From the NCBI GenBank assembly GCA_047651235.1, contig CP178758.1, forward strand, positions 60,001 to 92,000: a DNA stretch of 32,000 nucleotides. Reading direction: 5' to 3'. The notes under the pieces are model-generated. The model worked only from the letters and a program-made list of their open reading frames with translations, was not told where the DNA came from and searched no databases. This DNA is from Candidatus Electrothrix yaqonensis. GTDB taxonomy: Bacteria; Desulfobacterota; Desulfobulbia; Desulfobulbales; Desulfobulbaceae. The position numbers and the translations under genes are program-made. Shown here piece by piece: positions 2,532 to 19,612 of the stretch; position 1 is the stretch's first letter; each line of letters starts with the position of its first letter.

Positions 2532-5486
2532 TCACGGTAGAAACACCACCGGGAAGTCAGGCACGTTCTCCGGGATAACCACTGCCGGAGTCTGCTGATG
2601 GTCGGTTAGCTCCGGCACCCGATGGGCGAGATAGGTATTAATCTCTGAGAGACGAACAGCCTTGTCCTGCACATAGTCGGCATCACCTTGCATGGCTTCA
2701 AGCAGGGCCAGAGTAAAGGCCCCGTGTTTCCACGCATCCCGCTCCTGCGCTGTCTGGTTGCCGGTGGTGGCGGAGAGCACCACTACCCCGTTCTCTGTCG
2801 CGCTCAGGTCGTTGATGATCTTAGTGATGTCCACTGTGTCGTTGCCACGTATCCCTGCCGCCTTGCCGGAATAGCAGGTATCAACAAAGAACAGGGCCTT
2901 GCCACGCAGCCGGGCCACTGTTCTGCGGATGGCATCGTAGGATACTGCGGAGCTGGTATAGCGCCACGGCTTAAAATCCTTGGGCAGAAAGTAGTAGTCG
3001 CCATGCGAGTCCAGCTTGCCGTGCCCGGCCAGAAAGACCATTGCCACGTCGTTGTCCGTGGTCTGCTGATCAATCCACTCCAGCCCTTGCAGTACCGCAT
3101 CCTGATCTGCCTGCTCATTGGTGCGCAACCGGGTCTTAACCTCACGGTAGAGCTTGCCCGGCCCGGCCTGCTGCTTCATCAGAGTAACAAAGGCCCGTGC
3201 ATCTGCACTGGCATACTGGAGATACCTCTTGTCCGTCATCTTGCCTTTGTCATCCACCACAAAGTTGATTGCCGGCGCATCATAGTCATCCACGCCCACA
3301 GCCAGCAGGTAGAGCACCGGCTTGAGGGCATCCTTGCCGCCCAGCCAGCGCAGACGGATTGTTGATGTCTTGTCCGTGGACACGGCCTGCCCGTTGTCAG
3401 CAAGCAGGCTGAGGGTCATGTCCTTGGCAGGCAGGGTCACGTCCAGACTGCCTTCCCATTCCGCATCCCTGCGCCGCTCCACTGTGGCCCGATGGCGGGG
3501 CCGGTTGTCAACCATGACTTGCAGGGCCGTGATTGGTGGGCCGCCGTGCGTGCGCACCCGGTAACGCAGAGTCAGGGTGGGGCTGCGGAAGCTGCTGTTG
3601 TTAGCCGGGGCGAGCAGCTCAATAACAGGGGGTTGGGCGTATTGAAACGGCGTGGTAACCTGCCTGCTGCTCCGCCCTCTTGCCGCATCAGCACGGGCCA
3701 CGGCCTTGTCTTGGTCCAGGGTCTCCAGCACCTTGGCGACCACATCCGGGCGGTAAAAGTGTTCGCGGAACTGGGCAGCCGGGAAGAAGTCGGCCAGCCG
3801 GTCTTTGCCGTTGTTGACCTGCCAGCCGATCAGGCTGTCCCCGCCCGGACTGCTGTCGTACCAACCCTTCGGAGTCCAGGCCACCCAATGCTCTGCGTCC
3901 CAGGTGTCCCTCTCCCTGTTGACAGAGACAAACAGGGAAAGCAACGGCTCACCATCGCTGAGGCGGTACCAGCGGATAGTGCCGTCCGCAAAGGCGACCA
4001 CTGCCAACTTCCCATCTCCGCTGATATTCACGCCCCAAGCCGTACCCGGCACCTGCTGCTGCCAGACCTCCCTGCCCTGGCGGTCAAAGTAGCGCAGCGA
4101 CCAGTTCGTGCCAAGGAGGAAATGCTGCTTGTCCGGGGCAATGGCCAGGCTGCGGGAGCGTTCGTAGTCCTCTAAGGCCAGCGGTTTGCCTTTGAGGGTG
4201 GGATTATATTCGTTCTTCCAATCCTCAATCTTCAGACCGGGGGCCGTAATGCGCGGAGTGTGCAGAGGATTATTGAGACTGCCTTCGCATTCGCCCTTGC
4301 GGAGCTGCCGTTGACTCAGGTCAAAGCAGACCGGCTCATTGCCCCATACCTTCAAACCAAAGCTGACCTGCCTACCGTCTGCGCTGACTTGAAACTTGTC
4401 ATAGTGAGCGCGCAAGTCCGGGAGATTGGGCCGCAGGTCAAAGAGCTTTCCGCCTTGGCTGTCATAGCGGAGCAGGGCCGGATCAAAGGTACCGACCAGC
4501 AGGCTGCCGTCGGCAAGGGGCTTGAGGTCCATCACCGCATTGTCAGAGGCCCGCCAACTCGTGCGTTGACCACGCCCCTTATTCGCCCAGCGAAACACGG
4601 GACAGGTGCTGCCATCATAATACCTTCCCCCGGCAAAGAGGAAGCTGCCGTCCGCAGACCAAGTGACAATGGAAATACTGCCGTTATCGATGCCCTCTGT
4701 GTCTACGGCATAGAGCTGAGTGAGCTGCCGGGCATCCAGCACCGAGACTGCGGTGCTATCCTGAAAGCCGATGGCAAGCCGGTCGCCTGTGGGATGAAAG
4801 GCGACCGCAAAGGGTTCCTTGCCGCCTTGGGTGGCTGCCTGCTGCTCCTTGCGAAAGGAGGCTGTGTTCATCCGACCCTCCACGCTATAGCGGCGGATCT
4901 GGCCGTCATCGCAGGTAGTAACCAGACTGCGGCTGTCCGGGCTGAAGGTGCAGCCGTAGCTGGAATCGCCGTAGTCATGGTCAGTAAAGGCAGAATTAAA
5001 CCCCTTTCGGCTATCGTACACCCGCAGCCCTGCTCGCCCGACCATAGCAGCTAAGTAGCGTCCGTCTGGAGAGACGCAGAGATGGCTGATAGCATCCCCC
5101 AGCCCTTCAATGCGCTGGCGCATCTGGCCCGTGGCCCGGTCAAGGATGTAGATGGAATCATCCCAATCCCATCCTCCCGTTGCCAGCCAGTCCCCTGCCG
5201 GGTCCATAGCCACGGCATAGAGCTTGCCCTCATTACCCGGCCCGCTGGGCAGGCGAAAGGTGCGGAGCAGGCTGCCGTCCTTAGCATCCCACAGGCGCAG
5301 GGTCTTGTCCTCCGAGGCTGAGGCGAGCCAACGGCCTTGGGCATCCGTGGCAATGCGGTTGAGCATGGCAGTGTGGAAGCCGGTTTCCAGGCGCAGCATG
5401 GGCGCGGTGGATGGTTCGCTGGCTTGGGTGGTTGCAGTTACAGCGGCCAGCAGCAGGGGCAGCAACACGGCAAGAAGGTATTTCAT
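2532..5486 (-). CDS. secreted WD40-repeat (beta-propeller) protein with a C-terminal caspase-like peptidase C14 domain
   Basis: The N-terminal signal peptide is MKYLLAVLLPLLLAAVTATTQA. Repeated WD-type units are present (SASEDKTLRLWDAKDG, ADGTIRWYRLSDG). The C-terminal domain carries the caspase dyad motifs VFLAGHGK (His) and FFVDTCYSGK (Cys). GGAGA lies 7 nt upstream of the ATG. Confidence 0.85.
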   Translation of the reverse strand: MKYLLAVLLPLLLAAVTATTQASEPSTAPMLRLETGFHTAMLNRIATDAQGRWLASASEDKTLRLWDAKDGSLLRTFRLPSGPGNEGKLYAVAMDPAGDWLATGGWDWDDSIYILDRATGQMRQRIEGLGDAISHLCVSPDGRYLAAMVGRAGLRVYDSRKGFNSAFTDHDYGDSSYGCTFSPDSRSLVTTCDDGQIRRYSVEGRMNTASFRKEQQAATQGGKEPFAVAFHPTGDRLAIGFQDSTAVSVLDARQLTQLYAVDTEGIDNGSISIVTWSADGSFLFAGGRYYDGSTCPVFRWANKGRGQRTSWRASDNAVMDLKPLADGSLLVGTFDPALLRYDSQGGKLFDLRPNLPDLRAHYDKFQVSADGRQVSFGLKVWGNEPVCFDLSQRQLRKGECEGSLNNPLHTPRITAPGLKIEDWKNEYNPTLKGKPLALEDYERSRSLAIAPDKQHFLLGTNWSLRYFDRQGREVWQQQVPGTAWGVNISGDGKLAVVAFADGTIRWYRLSDGEPLLSLFVSVNRERDTWDAEHWVAWTPKGWYDSSPGGDSLIGWQVNNGKDRLADFFPAAQFREHFYRPDVVAKVLETLDQDKAVARADAARGRSSRQVTTPFQYAQPPVIELLAPANNSSFRSPTLTLRYRVRTHGGPPITALQVMVDNRPRHRATVERRRDAEWEGSLDVTLPAKDMTLSLLADNGQAVSTDKTSTIRLRWLGGKDALKPVLYLLAVGVDDYDAPAINFVVDDKGKMTDKRYLQYASADARAFVTLMKQQAGPGKLYREVKTRLRTNEQADQDAVLQGLEWIDQQTTDNDVAMVFLAGHGKLDSHGDYYFLPKDFKPWRYTSSAVSYDAIRRTVARLRGKALFFVDTCYSGKAAGIRGNDTVDITKIINDLSATENGVVVLSATTGNQTAQERDAWKHGAFTLALLEAMQGDADYVQDKAVRLSEINTYLAHRVPELTDHQQTPAVVIPENVPDFPVVFLP

Positions 5487-8618: not shown

Positions 8619-8890
8619 ATTTCCAGCAGGCTCCTGATTTACCTGCCTGATATCGTATGGCTCCGCCTGATGCAGCATAACCTGCTGGAAGGCAATCCGC
8701 CAACCGTGTTTATTACTTCTACTTTGTCAACCATAACCTTTTGATCTATTTGTAAAAACTTCTTGCAATATCCGGATAAAGTTGTATCTTTCATTAGGAA
8801 AATTTTATCGCTTTTTGATCAAGATAGCACCTGATAACAGCTATCAAAAAAATACCCGTCAATCGCCCTGATTATAACTTTATTCTTTTT

Positions 8891-9342
8891 ATGAACGCTC
8901 CCAGCCCCGAAAAAAGAAGTCCCCATGACAAATTCTTTGAGTTGACCGGCATCGCCCGGCAACTTACGTCTTTTCACGAAAGATATCATCTCTTTTTTAA
9001 GAGACATACAGTAAGTTTGTCAGATAAAGCATTCCAATACTTGAAAGGTTTATTCCAGTCTGACAAAAAAACATGGAACGTATGGAGGAAAAGGTTCCGG
9101 GCGTTAAATATGAGCCCCTCCAGTATTTTCTTTCCGACTCGAACTGGGATTGGCGTCCTGTAAACAACCAAGTAGCTAAAGATGCAGATAAACTTTTAGG
9201 AGGAAAGGAAGATAGCGCTCTTTTAATTGATGAATCCGGGATACCCAAAAAGGGTAAAATGTCTGTTGGGGTTTCTCGTCAATGGTGCGGGCAGCTTGGT
9301 AAAACCGACAACTGTCAAGTAGTTCTACTTTGGCGATCATAA
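8891..9342 (+). pseudogene. IS701-like transposase, N-terminal fragment, frameshifted at an A7 run
   Basis: ORFs 8891-9163 and 9073-9342 together read ...GLFQSDKK/NMERMEEKVPGVKYEPLQYFLSDSNWDW...LLIDESGIPKKG, but only if the frame shifts by -1 at A7 (9065-9071). Homology to copy 2 stops at 9322/9323. Confidence 0.8.
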
Positions 9343-9438
9343 ACATAACTAGCTTATTTTTATTAAGTATTTAAAAACCCCTGTTTTTAGTATTATTAAT
9401 ATTATTAAATAGTTAATGGTATGGTCACCAAAGTAGAA
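9323..9438. mobile_element. 116-bp AT-rich MITE-like element with IS701-like terminal inverted repeats, nested in IS copy 1
   Basis: It starts TTCTACTTTGGCGATCATAAAC and ends GGTATGGTCACCAAAGTAGAA. The first 11 bp are a perfect inverted repeat, and about 18 of 22 positions match overall. The ends resemble the termini of the full IS. The interior has no coding potential. Confidence 0.7.
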
Positions 9439-9879
9439 TTAGTTGTCAGACGTGAGGTTAAGTCCCCGAAAAAAATTAAATATAGCCTAAGTAATGCGGA
9501 AAGTAACACGTCAACAAGACGACTTGCATATATGCAAGCTCAACGATATTGGGTTGAACGGCCATTTCAGGATGCAAAAAATGAATGTGGAATGGGTGAT
9601 TATCAGGCTCGGGGATGGCTGGCTTGGCATCATCATATGACTATGGTCATGATGGCCATGTTGTTTATGGTCGAGCAACGATTATACCATCAAGTCGGTG
9701 TCCCGTTATTGAGTTGCGCTGATATAACAACATTACTCAAGTCAATTCTTCCACGTCGAGATGTAAACGAAGATGAAGTTATAAGACAGCTTTGTCAACG
9801 GCATGAAAAGAGGCAAGCTTCGATTGATTTCGCATATGAGAAACAACGGAATTGCAAATTATTACCACAGCCTTTGTGA
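9439..9879 (+). pseudogene. IS701-like transposase, C-terminal fragment
   Basis: The sequence LVVRREVKSPKKIKYSLSNA...RYWVERPFQDAKNECGMGDYQARGWLAWHHHMTMVMMAMLF is identical at protein level to the 3' ORF of copy 2. The track ORF's ATG at 9421 lies inside the MITE. Confidence 0.8.
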
Positions 9880-10054
9880 GTGCCAAAGTAGAAGTAACAG
9901 CCTGTGAAAAATATTATTATTAAAATTGTTCTGAGTGCTTTTAATAGGTCGCTGAGGAAAAAAATTGTGCTGCGCATTTCCCGGTCTCCCGCATTGAGAT
10001 GATGATGGCTTTTTCAGCAAAACGCCGTAAGCCGCAGGAAATCTTTGTCAGATG

Positions 10055-11137
10055 CTATCGACGACTTTTCCTGTGCTTCATCACAGCCTTACAATGCTTA
10101 CTGAACTGCTTGTCTTTTATTCTTTTTTCCAAGTAGGACATTTCATTATACGTAGTTTCTCTGGTCATTTTTAAATAATTATGATAGCGGTCCGGAGATA
10201 ATTGACCTTGCTTGACAGCATCTAAAACGGCGCATCCTTTTTCTGCAACATGAGTGCAGTCGTTGAAATGACATTGTTCAGACAGACTGATTATGTCAGA
10301 AAATGTCTGATCAAGGCCAGTTTCTGCTCCAAATATGCCAAGCTCCCGCATGCCTGGCGTATCGATTACCATTGCCCCTGAATCTAACTTGATCAATTCT
10401 CTATGTGTTGTGGCATGTCTGCCTTTACTCTCTCTTTTGCTGACTTCTTTGGTTTTGTATCGGGATTCGCCTAACAGGTTGTTGAGTAAAGTTGTTTTGC
10501 CTACCCCTGATGATCCCAGCAGGCAATATGTCAAATTTGGCTTTATCAATCTGATAACATCGCGTAAACCGGATTCATCTTCATTATTAAAGGGAACCGT
10601 TCGGATATCGGGCATGATTTTATGAATTTCTTCGGTTCTGCAGGCTATATCTTCAGCTGAAAGCAAATCACTTTTGCTCAGCAGGACGACTGGTCGGATA
10701 TTGCTCTCGTTAACCATGACAAGATAACGTTCAAGTCGTCTGAGGTTAAAATTTTCATTCAACGATTGAACAATGAATGCAACATCGATATTGGCTGCAA
10801 TTAACTGAAAATCAACTTTCTTCCCTGGTGTTTTCCTTTTCAGCAAAGATTTTCGTGGTAATATTTCGTGAATTATAGAGAAAGTATTTTCATCATAAAA
10901 ACTGACAAAAACCCAATCACCTACCGTAGGATAGTCTACAGGGGAAGAAGCATTGAATAGTATTTTTCCGATCAATTCCGCTGCAGTGTCTACCTCTCCA
11001 TTACTGACGGTATAGCTGTCTTTGTGAACAGCGACCACTCTGGCGACTTCAAAGTTTTCCGGGTTGCTCTGCGAAGCAGCTTCCAGGTACCACTTATCAA
11101 AGCCAAAATCTTTTAAATTGTTCGGTATATTATTCAT
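10055..11137 (-). CDS. rsgA: RsgA/YjeQ-type circularly permuted ribosome-biogenesis GTPase
   Basis: It has an N-terminal OB-like region, then G4 LSKSD, then G1 GSSGVGKTTLLN, then G3 DTPGMRE, then the zinc knuckle CHFNDCTHVAEKGCAV. The gene is AT-rich relative to the backbone. Confidence 0.85.
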   Translation of the reverse strand: MNNIPNNLKDFGFDKWYLEAASQSNPENFEVARVVAVHKDSYTVSNGEVDTAAELIGKILFNASSPVDYPTVGDWVFVSFYDENTFSIIHEILPRKSLLKRKTPGKKVDFQLIAANIDVAFIVQSLNENFNLRRLERYLVMVNESNIRPVVLLSKSDLLSAEDIACRTEEIHKIMPDIRTVPFNNEDESGLRDVIRLIKPNLTYCLLGSSGVGKTTLLNNLLGESRYKTKEVSKRESKGRHATTHRELIKLDSGAMVIDTPGMRELGIFGAETGLDQTFSDIISLSEQCHFNDCTHVAEKGCAVLDAVKQGQLSPDRYHNYLKMTRETTYNEMSYLEKRIKDKQFSKHCKAVMKHRKSRR

Positions 11138-11329
11138 GTCGGATTAGACACCTGAATTCGAGTTCAACGTTGTGTTATCGAGGCGCATAGTGCACGTCTT
11201 GATCAACGTAAAGATCAGCAGACCTGAAGCACAAGTTTTCCAACTTTAAAAGAGGCAGCAAAGATGTACATGCCGTGCCCAAAGAAAGCGCGTCCTTGGG
11301 ATCTGCTGTGTTTTTTGGTTAACTGATTG

Positions 11330-12457
11330 TTATTCATTGATTATCTTTAAGTCTGATACCGCTTCTAATTGCCAAGAAGAACCTTTTCTTTCTAATATTC
11401 CCTGAACCTCAAGCTGTGCTCTTGACTTGTGAGCTTCGATTGCCAGAAGATACTGATTTACACCTAGTTCAATTTTTACATTTATATTCCCATAATTTTC
11501 ATGGTGATGTTTTAATATTATAATTCTCTTGCCAGATTCACTAGTTGGATCATTACTGCGAAGATTAACAACTTTTCCTAATATAAGTGAGTTTTCCGGG
11601 TCAACTTCTTTCATTTTATTTGCTGCATATTTAAGATATGAAAATTCTTCATCACCAAATGCTTGTACTTTAAAGTTTGATACATCTTCAGATGGAGGTA
11701 AACTGCTCGCCCAGTGTACAGCTAACTCTAAAGGTGTCTCAAGCTCTTCTCCCATTTCAACAATAGCTTCGCACATTCTTGAATTGAATCCGTATTGATA
11801 ACCGGAAGCCAAAATATCTGGATCTTGTTTAGAGATAGCTTCATTTGTTTTTTGAATTCCACGTATAATTCTTTCTATGATTCTCCTTTCGATAGGGGGA
11901 AAAAACATATCTTGTTGTTTAAATTCTTCGACAACTGGTGATTCAACAGAAAATCCAAAACTCCCGTGAAAAGTATGACCAAAACGTATTTTTTTTGCCA
12001 TGTTATAGCCAGTTCTTGATGGGGTTTCATGATGGGGAAGTGCTTTTTTTTCGGAGCAAGCGCTATAGACAAAAAGATTGCGAAGGCCATTTACTTCTTT
12101 TTTGGCAACTTCTAATGGGATGCTAAAAGGAAAATTATCATCGGGGGAGATTTTGACAAAGAACTTGTCGATATTAAGACTTTTTAAGATTCTTGACAGT
12201 GCAGCCGGTTCTATTTCGTAAAGATTTGACAATAAAGAAAAAACATCATAAATTCTTTTAGTCAAGTCCTCGAAATCATTAGAACTAGGAAGAAACACTT
12301 CTAAGGGGTTACCTGAATCACCCTCCGGCCCCTGAAACACTGAAAGTTTTCGGTTTGTACAAGATATTTCCAGCCAACCTTTAGACCTTAAAAAAGATTT
12401 TAAATCATAAAGAGATATCCCTTGAACAATATCAAGAGGAGAATTCGAGTTACTCAT
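11330..12457 (-). CDS. hypothetical protein (375 aa), no recognisable motif
   Basis: This is a long ORF in an AT-rich segment. Its ATG overlaps the stop of the upstream DUF4365-like gene (ATGA at 12454-12457), which implies translational coupling. I found no NTPase, HEPN, nuclease or TM motif. Confidence 0.7.
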   Translation of the reverse strand: MSNSNSPLDIVQGISLYDLKSFLRSKGWLEISCTNRKLSVFQGPEGDSGNPLEVFLPSSNDFEDLTKRIYDVFSLLSNLYEIEPAALSRILKSLNIDKFFVKISPDDNFPFSIPLEVAKKEVNGLRNLFVYSACSEKKALPHHETPSRTGYNMAKKIRFGHTFHGSFGFSVESPVVEEFKQQDMFFPPIERRIIERIIRGIQKTNEAISKQDPDILASGYQYGFNSRMCEAIVEMGEELETPLELAVHWASSLPPSEDVSNFKVQAFGDEEFSYLKYAANKMKEVDPENSLILGKVVNLRSNDPTSESGKRIIILKHHHENYGNINVKIELGVNQYLLAIEAHKSRAQLEVQGILERKGSSWQLEAVSDLKIINE

Positions 12458-12966
12458 GATAGCTCCCCTTTTTTTATTTTTATTATTAAATCTTTTATTT
12501 TGGAAGGAGTTAGAAGTTGTTTCCTGGGGATTTTAACTCTAATTGTTGCCTGGTTTTTCGTTGGTTCTCCATTTACTGAAAAATAATAGCAACTATTTTT
12601 TATAGTTAAAGACTCTTCAGATACACAAATCCATTCTTTCTTATCTTTTGGTAGACACATGACGACAAGGAAGCATGGAATGCTAGAATTATTCTTACGA
12701 TATAATAATTTGTTGTAAGTATCTGCATCTAAATCATAGATGACAGAATTGTCATCTTTTCCCCAGTTAATTGTCGCTTTTAACTGACAATCAAAAATAC
12801 CCCCCATGTCCATTCTCTTTCCTCCAATCGAATCAACTCTACGTACAGTGAGATCAACACCATAGTCTTGACTTACTATGTCAAATGTAGCCCCCGCACG
12901 AGATACAATAGCGCCTACCCAAGACACACTTATTGATTCTTCGATTGATTGAATCGGAATGGTCAT
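12454..12966 (-). CDS. DUF4365-like PD-(D/E)xK-fold protein (putative nuclease)
   Basis: The sequence SIEESISVSWVGAIV...DYGVDLTV...FDCQLKAT...IPCFLVVM follows the pattern I associate with DUF4365. That pattern is an N-terminal Glu helix, D-Y-G-V-D (D34, D38), then Q61-L-K63. The gene is very AT-rich. Confidence 0.65.
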   Translation of the reverse strand: MTIPIQSIEESISVSWVGAIVSRAGATFDIVSQDYGVDLTVRRVDSIGGKRMDMGGIFDCQLKATINWGKDDNSVIYDLDADTYNKLLYRKNNSSIPCFLVVMCLPKDKKEWICVSEESLTIKNSCYYFSVNGEPTKNQATIRVKIPRKQLLTPSKIKDLIIKIKKGELS

Positions 12967-13039
12967 TTGTATTTTATTATTTAGAAATTGTTATATCTGC
13001 TAATTTAATCGTTTAGCAGCGGTACTTAATCAGAAATCA

Positions 13040-16000
13040 TCACTTCGTTTCAGGATTACCTGTATCTTTCTGCGGAACCAGCTTCAGCCAGCCCTCCCGC
13101 ACTTCCTGCGGTCTGCTGAAATCAGCAGATAAGCTATATTGATCCACCCCCTGTTCCTGCCAGTCATCTCCGTCCTTTTCCACCCAGACCCATGCATAGC
13201 CCGGTTCTTCCGGTAGGGGCAGTTCGATTCCGCCGCTCCGTGTGAGCACAGGGGCGGTGAGAAAGGTTACTTCAATGGACTGCAGAGCATCCGCATACTG
13301 TTCCGGGGGAAGGATCTCCTCTTTGACCGGCAGGATACCTGTAGTAATGTGCAGGGTTCCCAGAGGGTCCATCAGCAGAGTCAGGGTGTGGGCCGGATCG
13401 CGGAAAGCCTGATACAGGGTCGGGTGCTCCTTATCCGGTTCTTTAGTACTGTAAAAGGCAGTGTCATCCGGGCCTTCCAGCCAGTAGCCCAACAGACCGT
13501 CATTCTGCTGTTTATGATTTCCCAGCCTGATCGGGATGTTGACAGCGTCAAACCCTTCTGTTTCCCGCTGACTATCTTTCTGTTGAATATCCTCCCGAAA
13601 CACACTCCAGTCCTGGTTGATCACCGGCAGCCCCTGCAGCTCAAGGTTCAGTGAGGCTCTGACAACGGCAACAGGTCGGCCTATGAGTAAGGCGGTTCCC
13701 TTGTACCGGGAAAAGTTCCTCGGATTAATCCGGTCCAGAGCCGTGTTGATGGTTCTGAGAAACTGGCTGAATCCGTTGTCACCCCCCTGATCCCCGGTTC
13801 CGGTTGTTTTGATACGCTGCACGGTTTCGCGCAGACAGGAATCCGAAATCTGTTCCGGCTCTTCCAGGCCGTCTTTTCCCGGAGCCGGGATCCAGTTCTG
13901 CTGGTGATCAATGATCCCAAGGGCTTTGCCTTTGCTGTCGTACACTGCCAGGGAGCGTTCCAGATTATTGGGCATCAGCCAGCCGCAGACAGCGGTCTGT
14001 TCAGGATGATTGCTGCTCTCTTCCGGTCTGTTTTCCGAGGCATCCGGCCGGGACGACAGCCAGCGGAAATCAATCCGGGCAGGCTGCATACAGCGGGGTG
14101 GCAGCACAATCCTGTCCGGTTCCGGCGCGGTTATAGTTTCCGAGCGGATAACTTCTTTCCAGCGCAGCTCTTTTCTCTGACCAAAGGTATCGATCAGCCG
14201 CAGACGGCTTATCCGCATCTTCCCTGCCCGCAGGGGAGCAAAGCTGTTCAACGGCTCCGGGGCATTGATGATACTGTCACCCACCAGCTGTTCCACCCTT
14301 TCAGTAAAATTTCGGTACTCCTGAAAGCCGATAGGCTCCCGGACAGCCAGCTGAAAGGTTTGTTTATGCATGAGCAGCGCATCGTTCAGACCGCTCAGAG
14401 CCTGGGAAAGGCTCTGCATCTTGTCCAGTTTTTCCCCCGCTTTGCGGACAAAATCATCAAATTGCTCATTCTTCTGCGCAGATGTATCTTTGAGCCGTGA
14501 TTCTACTTTCTCCCGCAGCAGTTCTGCCGCATACGGGGTCAGCAGACTTCGACCACTGTAGATATACCGTATCTCCGGAACCTTTTTCCCTTCTCTGGCT
14601 GTCAGGTCTGTTGCATGCTCGTTAAAAGTATAATCTCCCGTAAAATAATCCGGCGGGTATTTTTTCTGTTCACTGTCCAGGGTTTTCTGCAGCTGGATTT
14701 TCACCTGCCATTCCAGCAGAAAGGGATGCCAAGGTTGCTGCTGCCATTCAGCTGCCGCAGGCAGCTTCTCCCGAATACGGTCAATACCGTCAGCTTCCCC
14801 GTTGCGGAGCAGGTTGCTGAAACAGGCGGATGCAGCTGCTGCGCCGGTGACCTGCAGAGGGCCTGACGGCCGGGCCTGATCGGTGCTCACCACCTCATCC
14901 CCGTCGAGCAGAATGACCGGTTCCACGGGCTGCCAGTACCGGGAAGCCGGTTCTGACTGCAGGGTAAAGGTGGTTTTGTGTTCCTGGTTGAACGCCTCAA
15001 GTCCGGAGCGCAGCGTCTCTATCCGGTCCCCGATTTCTGCCTGCAGCCACCAGCTTTCTGCAATTCTGCGTTCCAGGGGAGCAAGATCCCGCTGCTCTAT
15101 AAAGACTCTGACGGTATCAATATCCAGATGATCATCCGAGACCGTCTCCGGCGGATAGGAACAGAGCATATATTTATACCAGTCAGCAAAGGTCCGCCTG
15201 CGTATGGATTTAATTTCCGCCTGCTGTCTGTCGTATTCTTTTTGCCGGGCATTCAGGGCAGCAAGCCGGGCAAGCAGGTCCGGGGACAGCGGTGTCTTTG
15301 CCTGCCGCTCTTTCTCCTGCTGTTCCTGTTGCTTGGAAAACACGAGCCACTGCAGACCGGCCTGTTTGGCCATGAAGCCCTTTTCGTGCCGGAGTTCATG
15401 CAGTTTGTACGGGGCATCCGGGTTGACGCCGGTAAAGATTTCCGGCTGAATCAGGGCTTCGAACTGCTGTTCTTTTTTCTTTTTCTCTTCCGGACTGCCG
15501 GACATGGCAGCAGCCAGATACGCAGACAGAGCCTCCGGCCCGGTACTGCCCACTGCAACCTTGACCCAGCCGTCAGATTGATCCGGATGCAGGGCCAACG
15601 GATCGGGGTTCAGTTTATCAGACTTCAGCCTGTCTCTGCTGATTTTTATCCGTGCGCAGCACAGGAGGTAATTGTCTTTTCCGGCCAGCTCCTCCGGCGC
15701 AACCTGCCAGCCGAATTCCTCTGCAAGATAGCTGACCGGATCATCGCCGGAATATTTCTGCAGTTCCCTGGACAGATGGTCTGCTGCTGGGTCGCTGTAC
15801 CAGCCGATAACCTCGTATTCCACGCTGTCCCGAAGGTTCTCGGCCGCAGCTTCCGGATCATGAAAGCCGAACACACTTAAGCAGTTGGGGTAGAAGGCGG
15901 CAAAGGAGGGCTCACCATATCCTACTGCCGTGAGATAGGGATAATATTCAGCCGTGCTAGCCGAGGACTGCAGCTGCTCCAGCCATTGCTCCAGGGGCAG

Positions 16001-16444
16001 GGCTCTTCCCATGTACCGGTACGGCGGATCATGCGGTCCTTTGGGCTGGCACGGCATAATGATGCTTTCCGCATAGCTGCCTGCCGGATACAGAAAATTG
16101 CTTTCCACCACCCACTGTTTTATGCTGCCGTCCCCGGTGCGGTGGGTGATCAGCCAGCGGTCAGGGACTGCGGGAAAGCTGACCCCATTCTTTTCTTCCC
16201 GGCCTGCAGTCAGTGCATCAGGAAGCTGCCAGTGCAGATGAATGCCGGGCTGGAGAAAGAGATTTCTGTTCTGAAAGGGCTGGGAGTTGAACTCCTCGCT
16301 GACATACGCGCTATTTGGATTGATATCCTGCATTCCGTCGGAATACGGCAGTTGGCTGAAATCAACCATGCTTTCAACAACCCGTCTGGAACGGGTAAGG
16401 TATAAGGCATCCAGGTGGGTGGGGATCAGAAGAAAATTGCTCAT
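13040..16444 (-). CDS. large hypothetical protein (1134 aa), no recognised catalytic motif
   Basis: This is an uninterrupted 3.4-kb ORF with backbone-like composition. The central region is charged and coiled-coil-like (KKKKEQQFEAL, QQEQQEKERQAKT, ARQKEYDRQQAEIKSIRRR). It has no Walker A motif, no signal peptide and no TM helices. All antisense ORFs across it look like shadows. Confidence 0.8.
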   Translation of the reverse strand: MSNFLLIPTHLDALYLTRSRRVVESMVDFSQLPYSDGMQDINPNSAYVSEEFNSQPFQNRNLFLQPGIHLHWQLPDALTAGREEKNGVSFPAVPDRWLITHRTGDGSIKQWVVESNFLYPAGSYAESIIMPCQPKGPHDPPYRYMGRALPLEQWLEQLQSSASTAEYYPYLTAVGYGEPSFAAFYPNCLSVFGFHDPEAAAENLRDSVEYEVIGWYSDPAADHLSRELQKYSGDDPVSYLAEEFGWQVAPEELAGKDNYLLCCARIKISRDRLKSDKLNPDPLALHPDQSDGWVKVAVGSTGPEALSAYLAAAMSGSPEEKKKKEQQFEALIQPEIFTGVNPDAPYKLHELRHEKGFMAKQAGLQWLVFSKQQEQQEKERQAKTPLSPDLLARLAALNARQKEYDRQQAEIKSIRRRTFADWYKYMLCSYPPETVSDDHLDIDTVRVFIEQRDLAPLERRIAESWWLQAEIGDRIETLRSGLEAFNQEHKTTFTLQSEPASRYWQPVEPVILLDGDEVVSTDQARPSGPLQVTGAAAASACFSNLLRNGEADGIDRIREKLPAAAEWQQQPWHPFLLEWQVKIQLQKTLDSEQKKYPPDYFTGDYTFNEHATDLTAREGKKVPEIRYIYSGRSLLTPYAAELLREKVESRLKDTSAQKNEQFDDFVRKAGEKLDKMQSLSQALSGLNDALLMHKQTFQLAVREPIGFQEYRNFTERVEQLVGDSIINAPEPLNSFAPLRAGKMRISRLRLIDTFGQRKELRWKEVIRSETITAPEPDRIVLPPRCMQPARIDFRWLSSRPDASENRPEESSNHPEQTAVCGWLMPNNLERSLAVYDSKGKALGIIDHQQNWIPAPGKDGLEEPEQISDSCLRETVQRIKTTGTGDQGGDNGFSQFLRTINTALDRINPRNFSRYKGTALLIGRPVAVVRASLNLELQGLPVINQDWSVFREDIQQKDSQRETEGFDAVNIPIRLGNHKQQNDGLLGYWLEGPDDTAFYSTKEPDKEHPTLYQAFRDPAHTLTLLMDPLGTLHITTGILPVKEEILPPEQYADALQSIEVTFLTAPVLTRSGGIELPLPEEPGYAWVWVEKDGDDWQEQGVDQYSLSADFSRPQEVREGWLKLVPQKDTGNPETK

Positions 16445-16725
16445 GCGGTGTGTTGGTGTGTGCGGGGGTTGGTTGTTCGGAATAATGAGTACAAAGCAGA
16501 AAGGGCGGCTTTTGTCAATTGAAATAATATGTTTGAGGATTCAAATCTGCAAGCCGCTTCTCTGTGCCCCGTCGCTGCGCAATCTGTGAAAGGGGTATCA
16601 TATCGGCGGGGATACTTTTTTGTCCCACAGTGTCGTATTTTCGTTTACTTTCTTCATCCCGTGTGGTTATCTCCTTGGATACTTCATTGTGTCAGTTATG
16701 AAATATAGTCAAAAAGGAGATTAAG

Positions 16726-17904
16726 ATGGGAAAACTGTCAGGTGTACTGTCAGGTGTAATTGCATTATGTATGATTCTTTTTTCTGCCGCTGCCGGTGCA
16801 GCGAAGCCTGCAGCACTTATGTATGTGGCGAATGAAGGGGAAAACAACGTCATGGTAGTTAATCTTGAAACGGAAGAAATTCTTGCCACGATACCGACCG
16901 GATATTTTCCTCACGCTATTGTTTTCGCAGCAGGTAAGGCATACGTGAACAACAGAGGTTCTGAGCATCTCACTGTAATTAATACGGAGACCCTTGAGGC
17001 AGGTGAAGATATTCCCCTGCCGAACGTTTCTTTCCAACTGGCTCTTTCTCCTGACGGAAAAACAGTTGCGGTCTCCTACAAAGATGCGCTCAAGGTCTCT
17101 CTCATAGATGTGGCGTCCGACACTGTCTCCACACTCCCGCTCAGTGAAACTCCCGAAGCTCCAGAAAGAGGTTTCCCTGAAAAACCGATGAAACATCCTC
17201 ATTGGTCTAAACACGGCAGATATCTTTATGTACAAAACAATATAGATGATCTGATCATTAAGATAGACACTGACACCTTTACTGTTGCTACTGAAATTCC
17301 CATGCCCGGCTCTAATCACGACCTCGTGGCAAGCTCGAACGACAAAGTTCTGTACGCTGTCAATCAGGATACCAATGACCAAACTGAACCGATGCTGACC
17401 GTGATTGATACTGAAACCGACAGTGTTATCGAGAATATCACCATTCCTCTTTCTCCCGATGAAACCGGCTTCGGTCACCATGGAGGACTGACCCGGAACG
17501 GAAAAACCTTTTACTTCTGCAATGAACGCGGATACAGCGTGTCTCTTGTTGATACCGTTAACATGGAGGTCAGGAAGTCTCTTGAGGTCGGCAAAGGGGC
17601 GGGACATCCGGTCTTTTCAAAAGATAACAAAAAAGCCTTCATTATCCCGCATAAAGATAATATTATCTCGGTGATTGATACTCATTCCGAAGAGATCATT
17701 GAAGAGATTGAAGCTGGCGAAGCTGGTATAAAACCTAAAATAGCTCATAGTTCCTATATTACCAATGACGGTAAATACCTGTACGTTATTAATGTGCCTG
17801 ACCAGAATGTTGTGAAAATCAATACCGTGACGTTAAAGGTGGTGTCAACCATCCCCATAGGTCAAAAAGCATTGGCCTTCGCTGTTACAAAAGCGCAGCT
17901 GTAA
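16726..17904 (+). CDS. secreted YVTN-family (YncE-like) beta-propeller repeat protein
   Basis: It has the signal peptide MGKLSGVLSGVIALCMILFSAAAGAA and AAGGAGA upstream. Roughly 40-residue units recur (YVANEGENNVMVVNLETEEILATIP, YVNNRGSEHLTVINTETLE, LYAVNQDTNDQTEPMLTVIDTETD, YVINVPDQNVVKINTVTLKVV). Confidence 0.8.
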   Translation: MGKLSGVLSGVIALCMILFSAAAGAAKPAALMYVANEGENNVMVVNLETEEILATIPTGYFPHAIVFAAGKAYVNNRGSEHLTVINTETLEAGEDIPLPNVSFQLALSPDGKTVAVSYKDALKVSLIDVASDTVSTLPLSETPEAPERGFPEKPMKHPHWSKHGRYLYVQNNIDDLIIKIDTDTFTVATEIPMPGSNHDLVASSNDKVLYAVNQDTNDQTEPMLTVIDTETDSVIENITIPLSPDETGFGHHGGLTRNGKTFYFCNERGYSVSLVDTVNMEVRKSLEVGKGAGHPVFSKDNKKAFIIPHKDNIISVIDTHSEEIIEEIEAGEAGIKPKIAHSSYITNDGKYLYVINVPDQNVVKINTVTLKVVSTIPIGQKALAFAVTKAQL

Positions 17905-17999: not shown

Positions 18000-19612
18000 G
18001 TTACTTCTACTTTGGCACTCACAAAGGCTGTGGTAATAATTTGCAATTCCGTTGTTTCTCATATGCGAAATCAATCGAAGCTTGCCTCTTTTCATGCCGT
18101 TGACAAAGCTGTCTTATAACTTCATCTTCGTTTACATCTCGACGTGGAAGAATTGACTTGAGTAATGTTGTTATATCAGCGCAACTCAATAACGGGACAC
18201 CGACTTGATGGTATAATCGTTGCTCGACCATAAACAACATGGCCATCATGACCATAGTCATATGATGATGCCAAGCCAGCCATCCCCGAGCCTGATAATC
18301 ACCCATTCCACATTCATTTTTTGCATCCTGAAATGGCCGTTCAACCCAATATCGTTGAGCTTGCATATATGCAAGTCGTCTTGTTGACGTGTTACTTTCC
18401 GCATTACTTAGGCTATATTTAATTTTTTTCGGGGACTTAACCTCACGTCTGACAACTAAATGCCATTTTCTTGCTTCAGCCTCTTTACCGTCCCATAGCC
18501 ACTTCCCTATGCAGAATATCCACAATGAGTTTGCCTTTGGTCGTATTTCGAACTTTCACCCGTTTCCATGCATTATTAAGTTGTTGCATCACCCATTTAT
18601 CAACACGTATGCCTTCTTTTTGTGCTTCGAGCTTGCTCGGGCGTTTCCCTTTGTTCGATTTTGCTTTTGGAACGACAGGGTTGGGATCTTCAATATAAAT
18701 TATAAATTATCTGGTCTTTATGAACATCTGCCATGAACTTTTCATCGTTATCATCAAGTTTCCGAAGAAATTGAGAATTCTTCCCGTAAAAACCATCACA
18801 ACCCACCCAGTTAAAACGAACGCCATTCTTTCGCGCATGGAAGACCATGTCAAGAGCCTGTTCATGCTTTGTTTTGAAAACAATTTTGTCGGCGGGAATC
18901 TTAGCCTTAAGACAACGTTCCTTGTCATCCGTCCAGCTTTTCGGTAAATACAACCGAAAATCAATCGGCGTTGAAAAGCGACCATATCCCAAAGTTGCAA
19001 ACACTACTACTTGACAGTTGTCGGTTTTACCAAGCTGCCCGCACCATTGACGAGAAACCCCAACAGACATTTTACCCTTTTTGGGTATCCCGGATTCATC
19101 AATTAAAAGAGCACTGTTTTTCCTCCCTCCTAAAAGTTTATCTGCATCTTTAGCTACTTGGTTGTTTACAGGACGCCAATCCCAGTTCGATTCGGAAAGA
19201 AAATACTGGAGGGGCTCATATTTAACGCCCGGAACCTTTTCCTCCATACGTTCCATGTTTTTTTGTCAGACTGGAATAAACCTTTCAAGTATTGGAATGC
19301 TTTATCTGACAAACTTACTGTATGTCTCTTAAAAAAGAGATGATATCTTTCATGAAATGACGCAAGTTGTGGGGCGATGCCGGTCAACTCAAAGAATTTG
19401 TCATGGGGACTTCTTTTTTCGGGGCTGGGAGCGTTCATAAAAAGAATAAAGTTATAATCAGGGCGATTGACGGGTATTTTTTTGATAGCTGTTATCAGGT
19501 GCTAGCTTGATCAAAAAGCGATAAAATCTTCCTAATGAAAGATACAACTTTATCCGGATATTGCAAGAAGTTTTTACAAATAGATCAAAAGGTTATGGTT
19601 GACAAAGTAGAA
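18000..19612 (-). mobile_element. IS701-family-like insertion sequence, copy 2 (full length, 1613 bp, transposase decayed)
   Basis: It has the same termini as copy 1 (GTTACTTCTACTTTGGCAC at 18000; GTTGACAAAGTAGAA ending at 19612). It carries the whole transposase region, split over four reading frames. Confidence 0.85.
18019..19438 (-). pseudogene. IS701-like DDE transposase disrupted by at least three frame changes
   Basis: Four segments were identified. They are 19438-19166, 19256-18690, an unlisted frame of about 18700-18497 (IYIEDPNPVVPKAKSNKGKRPSKLEAQKEGIRVDKWVMQQLNNAWKRVKVRNTTKGKLIVDILHREV) and 18525-18019. Together they make about one IS701-type transposase. The breaks are at T7 19258-19264, at the 7-bp tandem duplication 18694-18707, and near 18500-18560. 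Confidence 0.8.

Follow-up and report, generated by a model that had tools for sequence, protein, structure and literature searches.

A horizontally acquired PDC-M02 gene pair in Candidatus Electrothrix yaqonensis with a predicted stand-alone DREN-type nuclease and a conserved partner protein

The window analysed, a 32,000-nucleotide stretch of DNA from Candidatus Electrothrix yaqonensis, carries on its minus strand two adjoining genes: gene A (12454..12966, 170 aa), which encodes a predicted stand-alone DUF4365 or DREN-type PD-(D/E)xK nuclease (PDC-M02A), and gene B (11330..12457, 375 aa), which encodes its conserved partner (PDC-M02B). Both open reading frames lie where the first-pass annotation had placed them, and their minus-strand orientation was confirmed. 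The ATG start codon of B and the TGA stop codon of A share the tetranucleotide ATGA (12454..12457, minus strand), which can be read directly from the sequence at 12457-12454, as had been claimed. A 4-nt overlap of this kind is present in 62 of 76 related A genes (ATGA in 50, GTGA in 7 and TTGA in 5). Within the last codons of A lies a Shine-Dalgarno-like GGGGAG for B (12463..12468, minus strand), the GGAG core of which ends 5 nt upstream of the B start codon. This element overlaps the codon for G167, which is nearly invariant in A, and a Shine-Dalgarno core precedes B in 48 of the 62 related loci with the 4-nt overlap. No Shine-Dalgarno sequence was found upstream of A, so that the earlier statement that both genes lack one stands for A but not for B. 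Judging from the ATGA overlap and from the position of the B Shine-Dalgarno sequence within the last codons of A, the two genes are translationally coupled.

The 73-nt gap upstream of A contains a weak sigma-70-like promoter match (12976..13003, minus strand; TTAGCA, 16 nt, AATAAT; 9 of 12 positions), which is a consensus match only, and the number of promoter-like sites in the region (9) was not significantly different from that in shuffled sequences (6.4 ± 2.9). Terminator-like sites were found only within coding sequence, the fold of the spacer between B and rsgA was not significant (z = -1.45), and an Rfam search of positions 9000-17000 gave zero matches.

The A protein matches Pfam PF14280 (DUF4365) over model positions 1-136 of 139 with E 2.4e-21 and 76.7 bits, against a gathering cut-off of 24.3, which bears out the suggestion that it is DUF4365-like. 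The AF2 model of A (pLDDT 81.2) consists of the elements H6-23, E39-47, E50-65, E74-80, H81-93 and E98-104, and the top ten Foldseek matches of this model were all SPARDA DREN-APAZ chains, with a probability of 1.00 for the DREN chains. The best of these was 9qcc at E 1.3e-07, followed by 9vx6, 9jt2 and others, with TMq of about 0.6. The next-best matches, to archaeal Hjc Holliday-junction resolvases (E 6.5e-04), were about 1000-fold poorer, and the homing endonuclease I-Ssp6803I was matched at E 6.2e-03. The PD-(D/E)xK fold proposed for A is thus supported, the predicted fold having its best matches in the SPARDA DREN domains. Archaeal Hjc and I-Ssp6803I share the same minimal PD-(D/E)xK core fold, but they match A far more weakly than DREN does, have no sequence-level match to it and occur in a different gene context, and A has extra C-terminal elements. 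When A was compared with the PDB by sequence, the sole match was phycoerythrobilin synthase (E 0.002), which is spurious; the true relatives came from the fold search.

In A, D38 would be the catalytic Asp of beta-2, and Q61 and K63 the (D/E/Q)-x-K motif of beta-3. Among 65 relatives of A, D38, Q61 and K63 are conserved in 65/65, D34 in 63/65 and E10 in 58/65, while E9 is variable; the residues cited in the first-pass annotation exist and, E9 apart, are conserved. Catalysis is predicted to involve E10, D38, Q61 and K63. Taken together, sequence and model identify A as a predicted stand-alone DREN-type (DUF4365) PD-(D/E)xK nuclease in which the D38/Q61-x-K63 site is complete.

For B, nothing significant was found in Pfam, NCBIfam or the PDB (by sequence and by profile), and a DUF7661 match in 2 of 63 members of its family (E 7.5e-4) was treated as noise. 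The protein is not the orphan it had been taken for, since its family comprises at least 1,923 representative clusters (50% identity) at E<=1e-3. In the AF2 model (pLDDT 87.7) an alpha/beta domain forms the N-terminus, the motifs RFGHTFxGSFGF, PxERRxxERxxRG and NSRMC lie in a central domain, and the C-terminus (about residues 285-373) is an OB-fold, a five-stranded barrel in which a helix separates strands 3 and 4 (E285-301, E311-319, E323-330, H333-344, E348-358 and E361-373). The top Foldseek matches of B in the PDB were all OB-folds (SSB, RPA, PolC and RecG) with probabilities of 0.97-1.00, and they were modest, the best E being 2.4e-03 and TMt reaching 0.56. No solved structure for the N-terminal and central domains was among these top matches. 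Conserved in B are Y336 and H343, which sit on the helix of the OB-fold, and W362, together with the invariant D97, T162 and R191 and the GSFGF pocket. The idea that B binds nucleic acid is weakened by the pI of the OB domain (6.5; family median 6.1), which is not basic, and by the acidity of B as a whole. Variants of B that do not have the OB domain also occur (as in locus L069). No HTH, RHH or AbrB domain was detected in B by Pfam and profile searches.

Both proteins correspond almost end to end to profile models of the defence-system resource PADLOC. A matches PDC-M02A (PDLC04290) with E 8.5e-58 and 192.8 bits, residues 3-167 aligning to model positions 2-166 of 170, and B matches PDC-M02B (PDLC04333) with E 3.1e-111 and 369.8 bits, residues 11-374 aligning to positions 10-378 of 379; PDLC04290 and PDLC04333 are the PDC-M02 models of PADLOC-DB v2.0.0. 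In addition to the two HMM matches, A is followed immediately by B on the same strand, with the 4-nt overlap. Order, strand and adjacency are those of cassette CAS_00021 (FAM_01850>>FAM_00842, count 894), for which Payne et al. 2024 (bioRxiv 10.1101/2024.01.29.577857) give the entry 'Assign as candidate PDC-M02'. The authors describe their 145 PDCs as untested (bioRxiv 10.1101/2024.01.29.577857), and our literature search retrieved no experiment on any PDC-M02 member or on a stand-alone DUF4365 gene with a partner. The architecture is identical. No BREX, DISARM or type I RM system surrounds the present copy. The pair is almost certainly a member of PDC-M02, which PADLOC already catalogues as a defence candidate, a point missed in the first-pass annotation; it represents one more ordinary copy of that known candidate.

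The association of A with B is strict. In 70 of the 71 other loci with room for it, in many phyla, A is found directly upstream of B, and the pairwise identities of A and B correlate with r = 0.84, whereas 500 permutations gave no value above 0.10. What surrounds the pair varies from locus to locus. Among 80 loci there was no conserved third gene (the most frequent neighbour family is present in 6) and no conserved link to integrase or replication genes. Restriction-modification genes recur, with a type I methyltransferase in 5 loci, a type IIG restriction-modification enzyme in 3 and an HmaB-like DUF1156 methylase in 3, and further recurrent neighbours are SoFic (4 loci) and PDC-M08B (3 loci). 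In one locus (L008) a SAD_SRA-HNH gene overlaps the start of A; in another (L007) the pair lies between an Abi_C gene and a serine recombinase gene, the latter beside phage-type portal and connector genes; and in a third (L001) it is part of a cluster of toxin-antitoxin genes (HipA_C, PIN/PhdYeFM). In others, such as L005 and L010, it is found among housekeeping genes.

The pair was also found on 8 plasmids and in the temperate, plasmid-like Leptospira phage LE1 (NC_048892.1), where the same A-then-B arrangement is formed by gp38 and gp37, annotated as hypothetical proteins. The gp38 protein matches the A profile with E 2.9e-38 and gp37 the B profile with E 9.8e-78, and the B model aligns over its full length with the predicted structure of gp37 (E 1.2e-28, TM 0.65). 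The phage copy differs in that B identity is about 24-28%, the genes are 2 nt apart rather than overlapping, and it is phage-borne and not chromosomal. A and B are inherited as one unit, which moves between distant bacteria, plasmids and a temperate phage.

In the present genome, the pair coincides with a low-GC islet (11300..13000) of 26-47% GC per 100-bp window, beyond which, from 13000 onwards, GC climbs to 45-59%. The first-pass annotation had called the pair compositionally foreign from spot counts in two 60-nt lines; these counts were exact (17/60 G+C at 12481-12540 and 32/60 at 13081-13140), and the windowed analysis that we ran upheld the contrast as one beyond chance. The GC content of the pair is 35.1% (GC3 25-27%) against 51.3% for the genome, which puts it at the 0.7th percentile among all 1637-bp windows of the genome, and the adjacent 1134-aa gene has 55% GC and a GC3 of 62%. 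In 64 of 65 related loci the pair is likewise more AT-rich than its flanks. B was found in 4 of the 119 genomes of the family, this genome included; within the genus, a search of other genomes did not find it. Of 401 genomes of the phylum, only 13 have DUF4365. On the basis of the GC percentile, the patchy presence in family and genus and the AT-richness relative to flanks in 64/65 loci, the pair is horizontally acquired.

The location is accessory DNA bracketed by IS701 copies in a cable-bacterium-like chromosome, the neighbours of the pair in the window being rsgA, an unclassified 1134-aa protein and the IS701 copies. No recognised defence gene adjoins the pair within this window by Pfam, PADLOC and NCBIfam searches. 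Comparison with congeners gave no clean empty site that could be reconstructed: the pair-bearing side of rsgA differs in every relative compared, and the usual 3' neighbour of rsgA is 165 kb off in this genome. A four-gene system that includes rsgA and the 1134-aa gene was considered and rejected. Only 2 of 119 family genomes encode the 1134-aa protein, neither of them together with B, it has no homologue in about 90 related loci, its gene is 20 GC points away from the pair, and rsgA is kept in 12/12 congeners.

The closest comparison for A is with the SPARDA DREN domain (NbaSPARDA 9jt2/9jsz; XauSPARDA 9qcc), the triad spacing being D38/Q61/K63 in A and D41/Q60/K62 in NbaSPARDA, where these residues are catalytic and only the tetrameric domain is active (PMC12205087). 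The isolated SPARDA DREN domain is an inactive monomer and becomes a nuclease once the Argonaute filament forces it into tetramers (PMC12205087). In SPARDA, however, the nuclease is fused to APAZ and adjoins a short Argonaute (MID-PIWI), whereas A is free-standing, with 170 aa that end without APAZ, and there is no Argonaute gene at the pair. B resembles neither APAZ nor pAgo by profile comparison with the PDB, and no SPARDA chain is among its top 50 fold matches, although such chains were in the library. Guide-RNA-directed filament assembly therefore cannot be what activates A. An identification of the pair as SPARDA itself was rejected, as A has no APAZ, and B has no Pfam match, no PDB profile match and only OB-folds as its top fold matches.

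DUF4365 is an N-terminal module of longer proteins in SPARDA DREN-APAZ, in Divona and in open frames of 247-1203 aa elsewhere in the phylum, and it had been suggested earlier that the pair is a split version of such a protein. This idea is largely refuted and appears very improbable to us. No ORF matching both the A and B profiles was found in any of 80 loci, and the best 150 representatives of the B family have 231-411 aa, which is too short for a fusion. In 8 DUF4365 architectures of the phylum outside PDC-M02 no B-like region was detected (E<=1e-3), and a PDB search with the B profile retrieved no sequence, not even a SPARDA chain. SPARDA is also absent from the top 50 fold matches of the B model. 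ORFs of 449-561 aa in three loci (L050, L057 and L090) had the appearance of A-B fusions, and these are artefacts of choosing the start of the longest ORF; separate A genes are present.

We lean modestly towards the view that the pair is an intact, horizontally acquired PDC-M02 copy that serves in anti-phage defence by a mechanism in which a sensor activates a nuclease. A would be the effector, held inactive in uninfected cells, and B a sensor or scaffold responding to an infection cue, for which a phage protein or an intermediate of phage nucleic acid would be candidates. On this cue B would assemble or release A subunits to form an active nuclease that cuts DNA, and the outcome would be a direct block to the phage or death of the infected cell. 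Oligomerisation is proposed here by analogy with SPARDA, the DREN domain of which is an inactive monomer until tetramerised. It is possible, if doubtful, that PDC-M02 represents an Argonaute-independent control of DREN, where B replaces the pAgo/APAZ guide machinery as a new infection sensor and drives the nuclease into an active oligomer. The suggestion of a defence role for PDC-M02 comes from gene context alone. We count against a defence reading that no defence gene lies beside the pair here and that several related loci are among housekeeping genes. The non-basic OB domain, the OB-less variants of B and the modest Foldseek E-values of the OB-fold are counted against the explanation that we consider best.

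The tight translational coupling and strict co-inheritance of the genes would also fit a toxin-antitoxin or addiction module, in which A would be a constitutively active, toxic nuclease and B, acidic overall as many nuclease inhibitors are, its stoichiometric inhibitor. Such a module would mainly stabilise the mobile DNA that carries it, and would act when B is degraded or host translation stops, without specific sensing. Carriage by plasmids and a plasmid-like temperate phage is consistent with this, as is the location of one related pair (L001) among toxin-antitoxin genes. However, antitoxins are typically far smaller than 375 aa, and B, with three domains and strongly conserved motifs, is also far more constrained than they are. 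The antitoxin of a type II system is small and labile, has a DNA-binding autoregulator domain and is usually encoded first, while here the toxin gene would come first, an order unusual for type II, and B has no such domain by the searches described above. It also argues against toxicity of A that the isolated SPARDA DREN domain is inactive (PMC12205087). We regard an addiction module as unlikely, and note that this reading overlaps, and is compatible with, abortive-infection defence.

An even less probable role, to which we give little credence, is in housekeeping or mobile-element DNA processing outside any conflict. Here A would be an Hjc-like, structure-specific nuclease and B a DNA-binding protein with an OB-fold, and together they would serve the recombination, repair or replication of their carrier element. 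This would fit the Hjc resolvases being the second-best fold matches of A (E 6.5e-04), the resemblance of the B C-terminus to the OB-folds of SSB and RPA, and the loci among housekeeping genes. It agrees poorly with the very patchy distribution (4/119 family genomes for B; 13/401 phylum genomes for DUF4365), the foreign composition in 64/65 loci and the recurrence of restriction-modification genes beside the pair. The roughly 1000-fold better match of A to SPARDA DREN than to Hjc also speaks against it, as does the lack of a conserved link to integrases or replication genes in the 80 loci.

By itself this copy adds little, being one more intact member that PADLOC can detect, and for annotation of the genome it represents a small, horizontally acquired defence-type islet within IS-bracketed accessory DNA. 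The PDC-M02 family, on the other hand, is very widespread, with at least 1,923 clusters, and occurs in many bacterial phyla, on plasmids and in a temperate phage. It couples the type of nuclease that is the effector in SPARDA with a partner that is mostly without a known fold, and it merits experiment. If control of DREN independent of Argonaute is true, DREN would be a portable effector reused by unrelated sensors, and B would be a new sensor family. Argonaute-free switching of DREN, if shown, would extend the principle of activation by assembly, and may offer a compact triggerable nuclease.

The two minus-strand open reading frames described in the first-pass annotation are present in the window exactly as reported, with the gene for the 170-aa DUF4365 protein (A) at 12454-12966 and that for its 375-aa partner (B) at 11330-12457, and the start codon of B and the stop codon of A share ATGA (12457-12454, minus strand). 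The annotation also held that neither gene has a Shine-Dalgarno sequence. This is right for A, which has none, but not for B, which has GGGGAG at 12468-12463 (minus strand), within the last codons of A; 5 nt separate the end of its GGAG core from the ATG. A similar core precedes 48 of the 62 overlapping B starts in related loci. The search around the pair for a terminator, an Rfam family or significantly structured RNA found none of these. The earlier spot counts of 17/60 G+C at 12481-12540 and 32/60 at 13081-13140 are exact, and the foreign composition proposed from them was upheld by windowed GC analysis. GC is 35.1% in the pair and 51.3% on average in the whole 3.74-Mb genome, in which only 0.7% of 1637-bp windows are equally AT-rich. 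GC3 is 27.5% in A and 24.7% in B, compared with 62% for the neighbouring 1134-aa gene and 73% for ruvB. From these GC and GC3 figures, the compositional contrast of the pair is real and unusual.

In PADLOC-DB v2, A corresponds to PDC-M02A (E 8.5e-58) and B to PDC-M02B (E 3.1e-111), with each match covering almost the full length, which makes membership of the phage defence candidate PDC-M02 virtually certain; the pair is an ordinary intact copy of this catalogued candidate. The PDC systems were put forward by Payne, Hughes, Fineran and Jackson (bioRxiv 10.1101/2024.01.29.577857), who inferred defence function from the location of genes within Hma, BREX, DISARM and type I RM loci; the authors themselves label the 145 PDCs 'untested'. 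In their supplement, cassette CAS_00021 (FAM_01850>>FAM_00842, count 894) carries the remark 'Assign as candidate PDC-M02' (10.1101/2024.01.29.577857). According to a Nature paper of August 2026 the PDC systems are still not all experimentally validated, and our literature search for an experimental test of PDC-M02 found no such paper.

The assignment of A to DUF4365 is confirmed by Pfam (E 2.4e-21, 76.7 bits, cut-off 24.3). DUF4365 is the DREN nuclease domain of the SPARDA literature, and the ten best PDB matches to the fold of A are all SPARDA DREN-APAZ chains (9qcc, 9vx6, 9jt2, 9jsz and 9qbp; E 1.3e-07 to 7.5e-06, TMq 0.54-0.63), followed by archaeal Hjc resolvases and then I-Ssp6803I. Among the PD-(D/E)xK-type residues that had been proposed, D38, Q61 and K63 are invariant in all 65 aligned family members, D34 is found in 63 and E10 in 58 of the 65, and E9 is variable. 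The invariance of the first three and the retention of D34 and E10 indicate that the motif had been read correctly and that the predicted site of A is intact. The catalytic residues of NbaSPARDA are D41 in beta-2 and Q60 and K62 in beta-3 (PMC12205087). On its family profile and modelled fold, A is a predicted intact DREN-type nuclease.

The description of B as an orphan did not survive an exhaustive HMMER scan of 1.84 billion representatives, which gave at least 1,923 clusters at E<=1e-3, with lengths of 231-411 aa among the best 150 of these 1,923. No match to B was found in Pfam, NCBIfam or PDB sequences, even with a 63-sequence profile. The structure model of B is confident (pLDDT 87.7, pTM 0.79). 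In its top hits, likeness to solved structures is confined to a C-terminal OB-fold (about residues 285-373) matching the OB domains of SSB, RPA, PolC and RecG (best E 2.4e-03, probability up to 1.00); these hits include no structural match to the N-terminal or central part. The central part holds the strongest motifs of the family, RFGHTFxGSFGF (158-169), P188-x-ERR-xx-ER-xx-RG and N225-SRMC, and an unbiased alignment of 63 members shows no variation at D97, T162 and R191. B, the partner of A, is conserved and consists of three parts. Since the OB domain, with a pI of 6.5 (family median 6.1), is not basic, the whole of B is acidic and one tandemly duplicated variant lacks the OB domain, binding of nucleic acid by B is plausible and draws no support from charge. 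This variant is found in an uncultured Chloroflexaceae MAG (L069, 9447-12533), where two A-B pairs stand in tandem; the B copies, of 303-304 aa, cover profile positions 3-287 of 378, and the spacer between the pairs has many short CCCTGA/AACCCG-type repeats.

A scan with one genome per species gave 80 related loci, distributed over Thermodesulfobacteriota, Alpha-, Beta- and Gammaproteobacteria, Bacillota, Chloroflexota, Chlorobiaceae, Planctomycetota, Verrucomicrobiota, Chlamydiota, Cyanobacteria, Acidobacteriota, Saccharimonadales and Leptospirales. Of the 71 loci with room for an upstream A, 70 have it immediately before B on the same strand, and 62 of 76 A genes have a 4-nt overlap with a start codon, the overlap reading ATGA in 50 cases. 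The pairwise identities of A and B are correlated with r = 0.84 (at most 0.10 in 500 permutations), and the two therefore travel together. No third gene is conserved, the commonest neighbour family being found in 6 of the 80 loci, mostly of one clade. Compared with its flanks, the pair has the lower GC content in 64 of 65 loci, with a mean difference of 8.3 points. It is present on eight plasmids and in the temperate Leptospira phage LE1 (gp38 with the A profile, E 2.9e-38; gp37 with the B profile, E 9.8e-78), and the full length of the B model matches the predicted structure of LE1 protein Q6NE06, which at 381 aa is as long as gp37 (E 1.2e-28). A and B thus form an autonomous two-gene module with coupled translation, joint inheritance and horizontal transfer. 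Its nearest homologues are in cable bacteria and other Thermodesulfobacteriota. B occurs in 4 of 119 genomes of the taxonomic family, this one counted, and was not found in the other congeneric genomes searched; DUF4365 occurs once in this genome. A Bryobacteraceae MAG (L042, 600-2369) has the sole B that lacks A despite upstream room, probably a decayed copy since stops fill all three forward frames upstream.

It had also been suggested that the pair is a split version of a longer DUF4365 protein. DUF4365 is found in 13 of 401 genomes of the phylum, five of which, this window included, have A-B pairs; the remaining eight have other architectures in open frames of 173-1203 aa, with no B-like region at E<=1e-3. 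As no open reading frame in the related loci matches both profiles, no fusion was seen among the best 150 representatives of B, and no similarity of B to APAZ or pAgo was found either, the suggestion is left without support.

Defence genes are frequent beside the pair and make up the neighbours found repeatedly in unrelated taxa: a type I methyltransferase (5 loci), SoFic (4 loci), a type IIG restriction-modification enzyme (3 loci), PDC-M08B (3 loci) and, directly downstream of B, an HmaB-like DUF1156 methylase (3 loci). On a Paenibacillus contig the pair is flanked on one side by an Abi_C gene and on the other by a serine recombinase gene, itself adjacent to genes for phage-type structural proteins (portal, connector); in Candidatus Electrothrix gigas it adjoins HipA_C and PIN/PhdYeFM genes, and at some other loci it lies amid ordinary genes. 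On metagenome contig k141_290198 (L008, 9129-11640) a type IV restriction-like SAD_SRA-HNH_2 gene shares 4 nt with the start of A, giving an apparent three-gene operon. Four loci from distant phyla (L028, L036, L048 and L052) share unannotated proteins of 947 and 342 aa upstream of the pair, three of them with an HmaB-like DUF1156 methylase, of 1205 aa, directly downstream; these look like pairs embedded in an Hma-like system.

In the window, the pair is part of an 8.1-kb segment bracketed by two inverted IS701-like copies, with arms of 607 nt (8717-9323 and 19006-19612, 98% identity) and 460 nt (9439-9898 and 18000-18459, 100% identity); neither copy has an intact transposase (ORF fragments of 152-188 aa). 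The segment contains rsgA (10055-11137, 40% GC) downstream of B, the pair, the 1134-aa gene (13040-16444) upstream of A and a beta-propeller gene. Being kept in 12 of 12 congeners searched (67-72% DNA identity), rsgA is a resident gene and not cargo. Its usual 3' neighbour, seen in three relatives, is here 165 kb away, at about 235 kb, which points to IS-associated rearrangement beside rsgA, and the side of rsgA that holds the pair differs in every relative; the site is a rearranged, variable spot. The 1134-aa protein, without a match in Pfam, NCBIfam, PADLOC or PHROG, was ruled out as a module member by its 55% GC, its rarity in the family (2 of 119 genomes, the second being a congener with a distant homologue of 1229 aa) and its absence from all related loci. 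Possibly another conflict-related gene of the window lies at 2532-5486; its 984-aa product carries a C-terminal caspase domain of the EACC1-associated type (NCBIfam NF047832, E 4.5e-22, below cut-off).

The PDC-M02 family probably acts in defence or conflict. We infer that A would be the effector and B the infection sensor that switches it on. By itself, the DREN domain of NbaSPARDA is monomeric and shows no detectable activity, becoming a nuclease only upon filament-driven tetramerisation (PMC12205087); by analogy, B would most likely assemble A subunits into an active oligomer. Alternatively, A might be held inactive by B until B is displaced. The outcome would be degradation of phage DNA, or of all cellular DNA. 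The main rival reading, a toxin-antitoxin-like module, overlaps with abortive infection and seems to us rather unlikely. Taken jointly, a PDC-M02 copy with a defence function in which B senses and A is the nuclease is the reading we lean towards, by a little. The pair is in any case one more intact copy of an already catalogued candidate.
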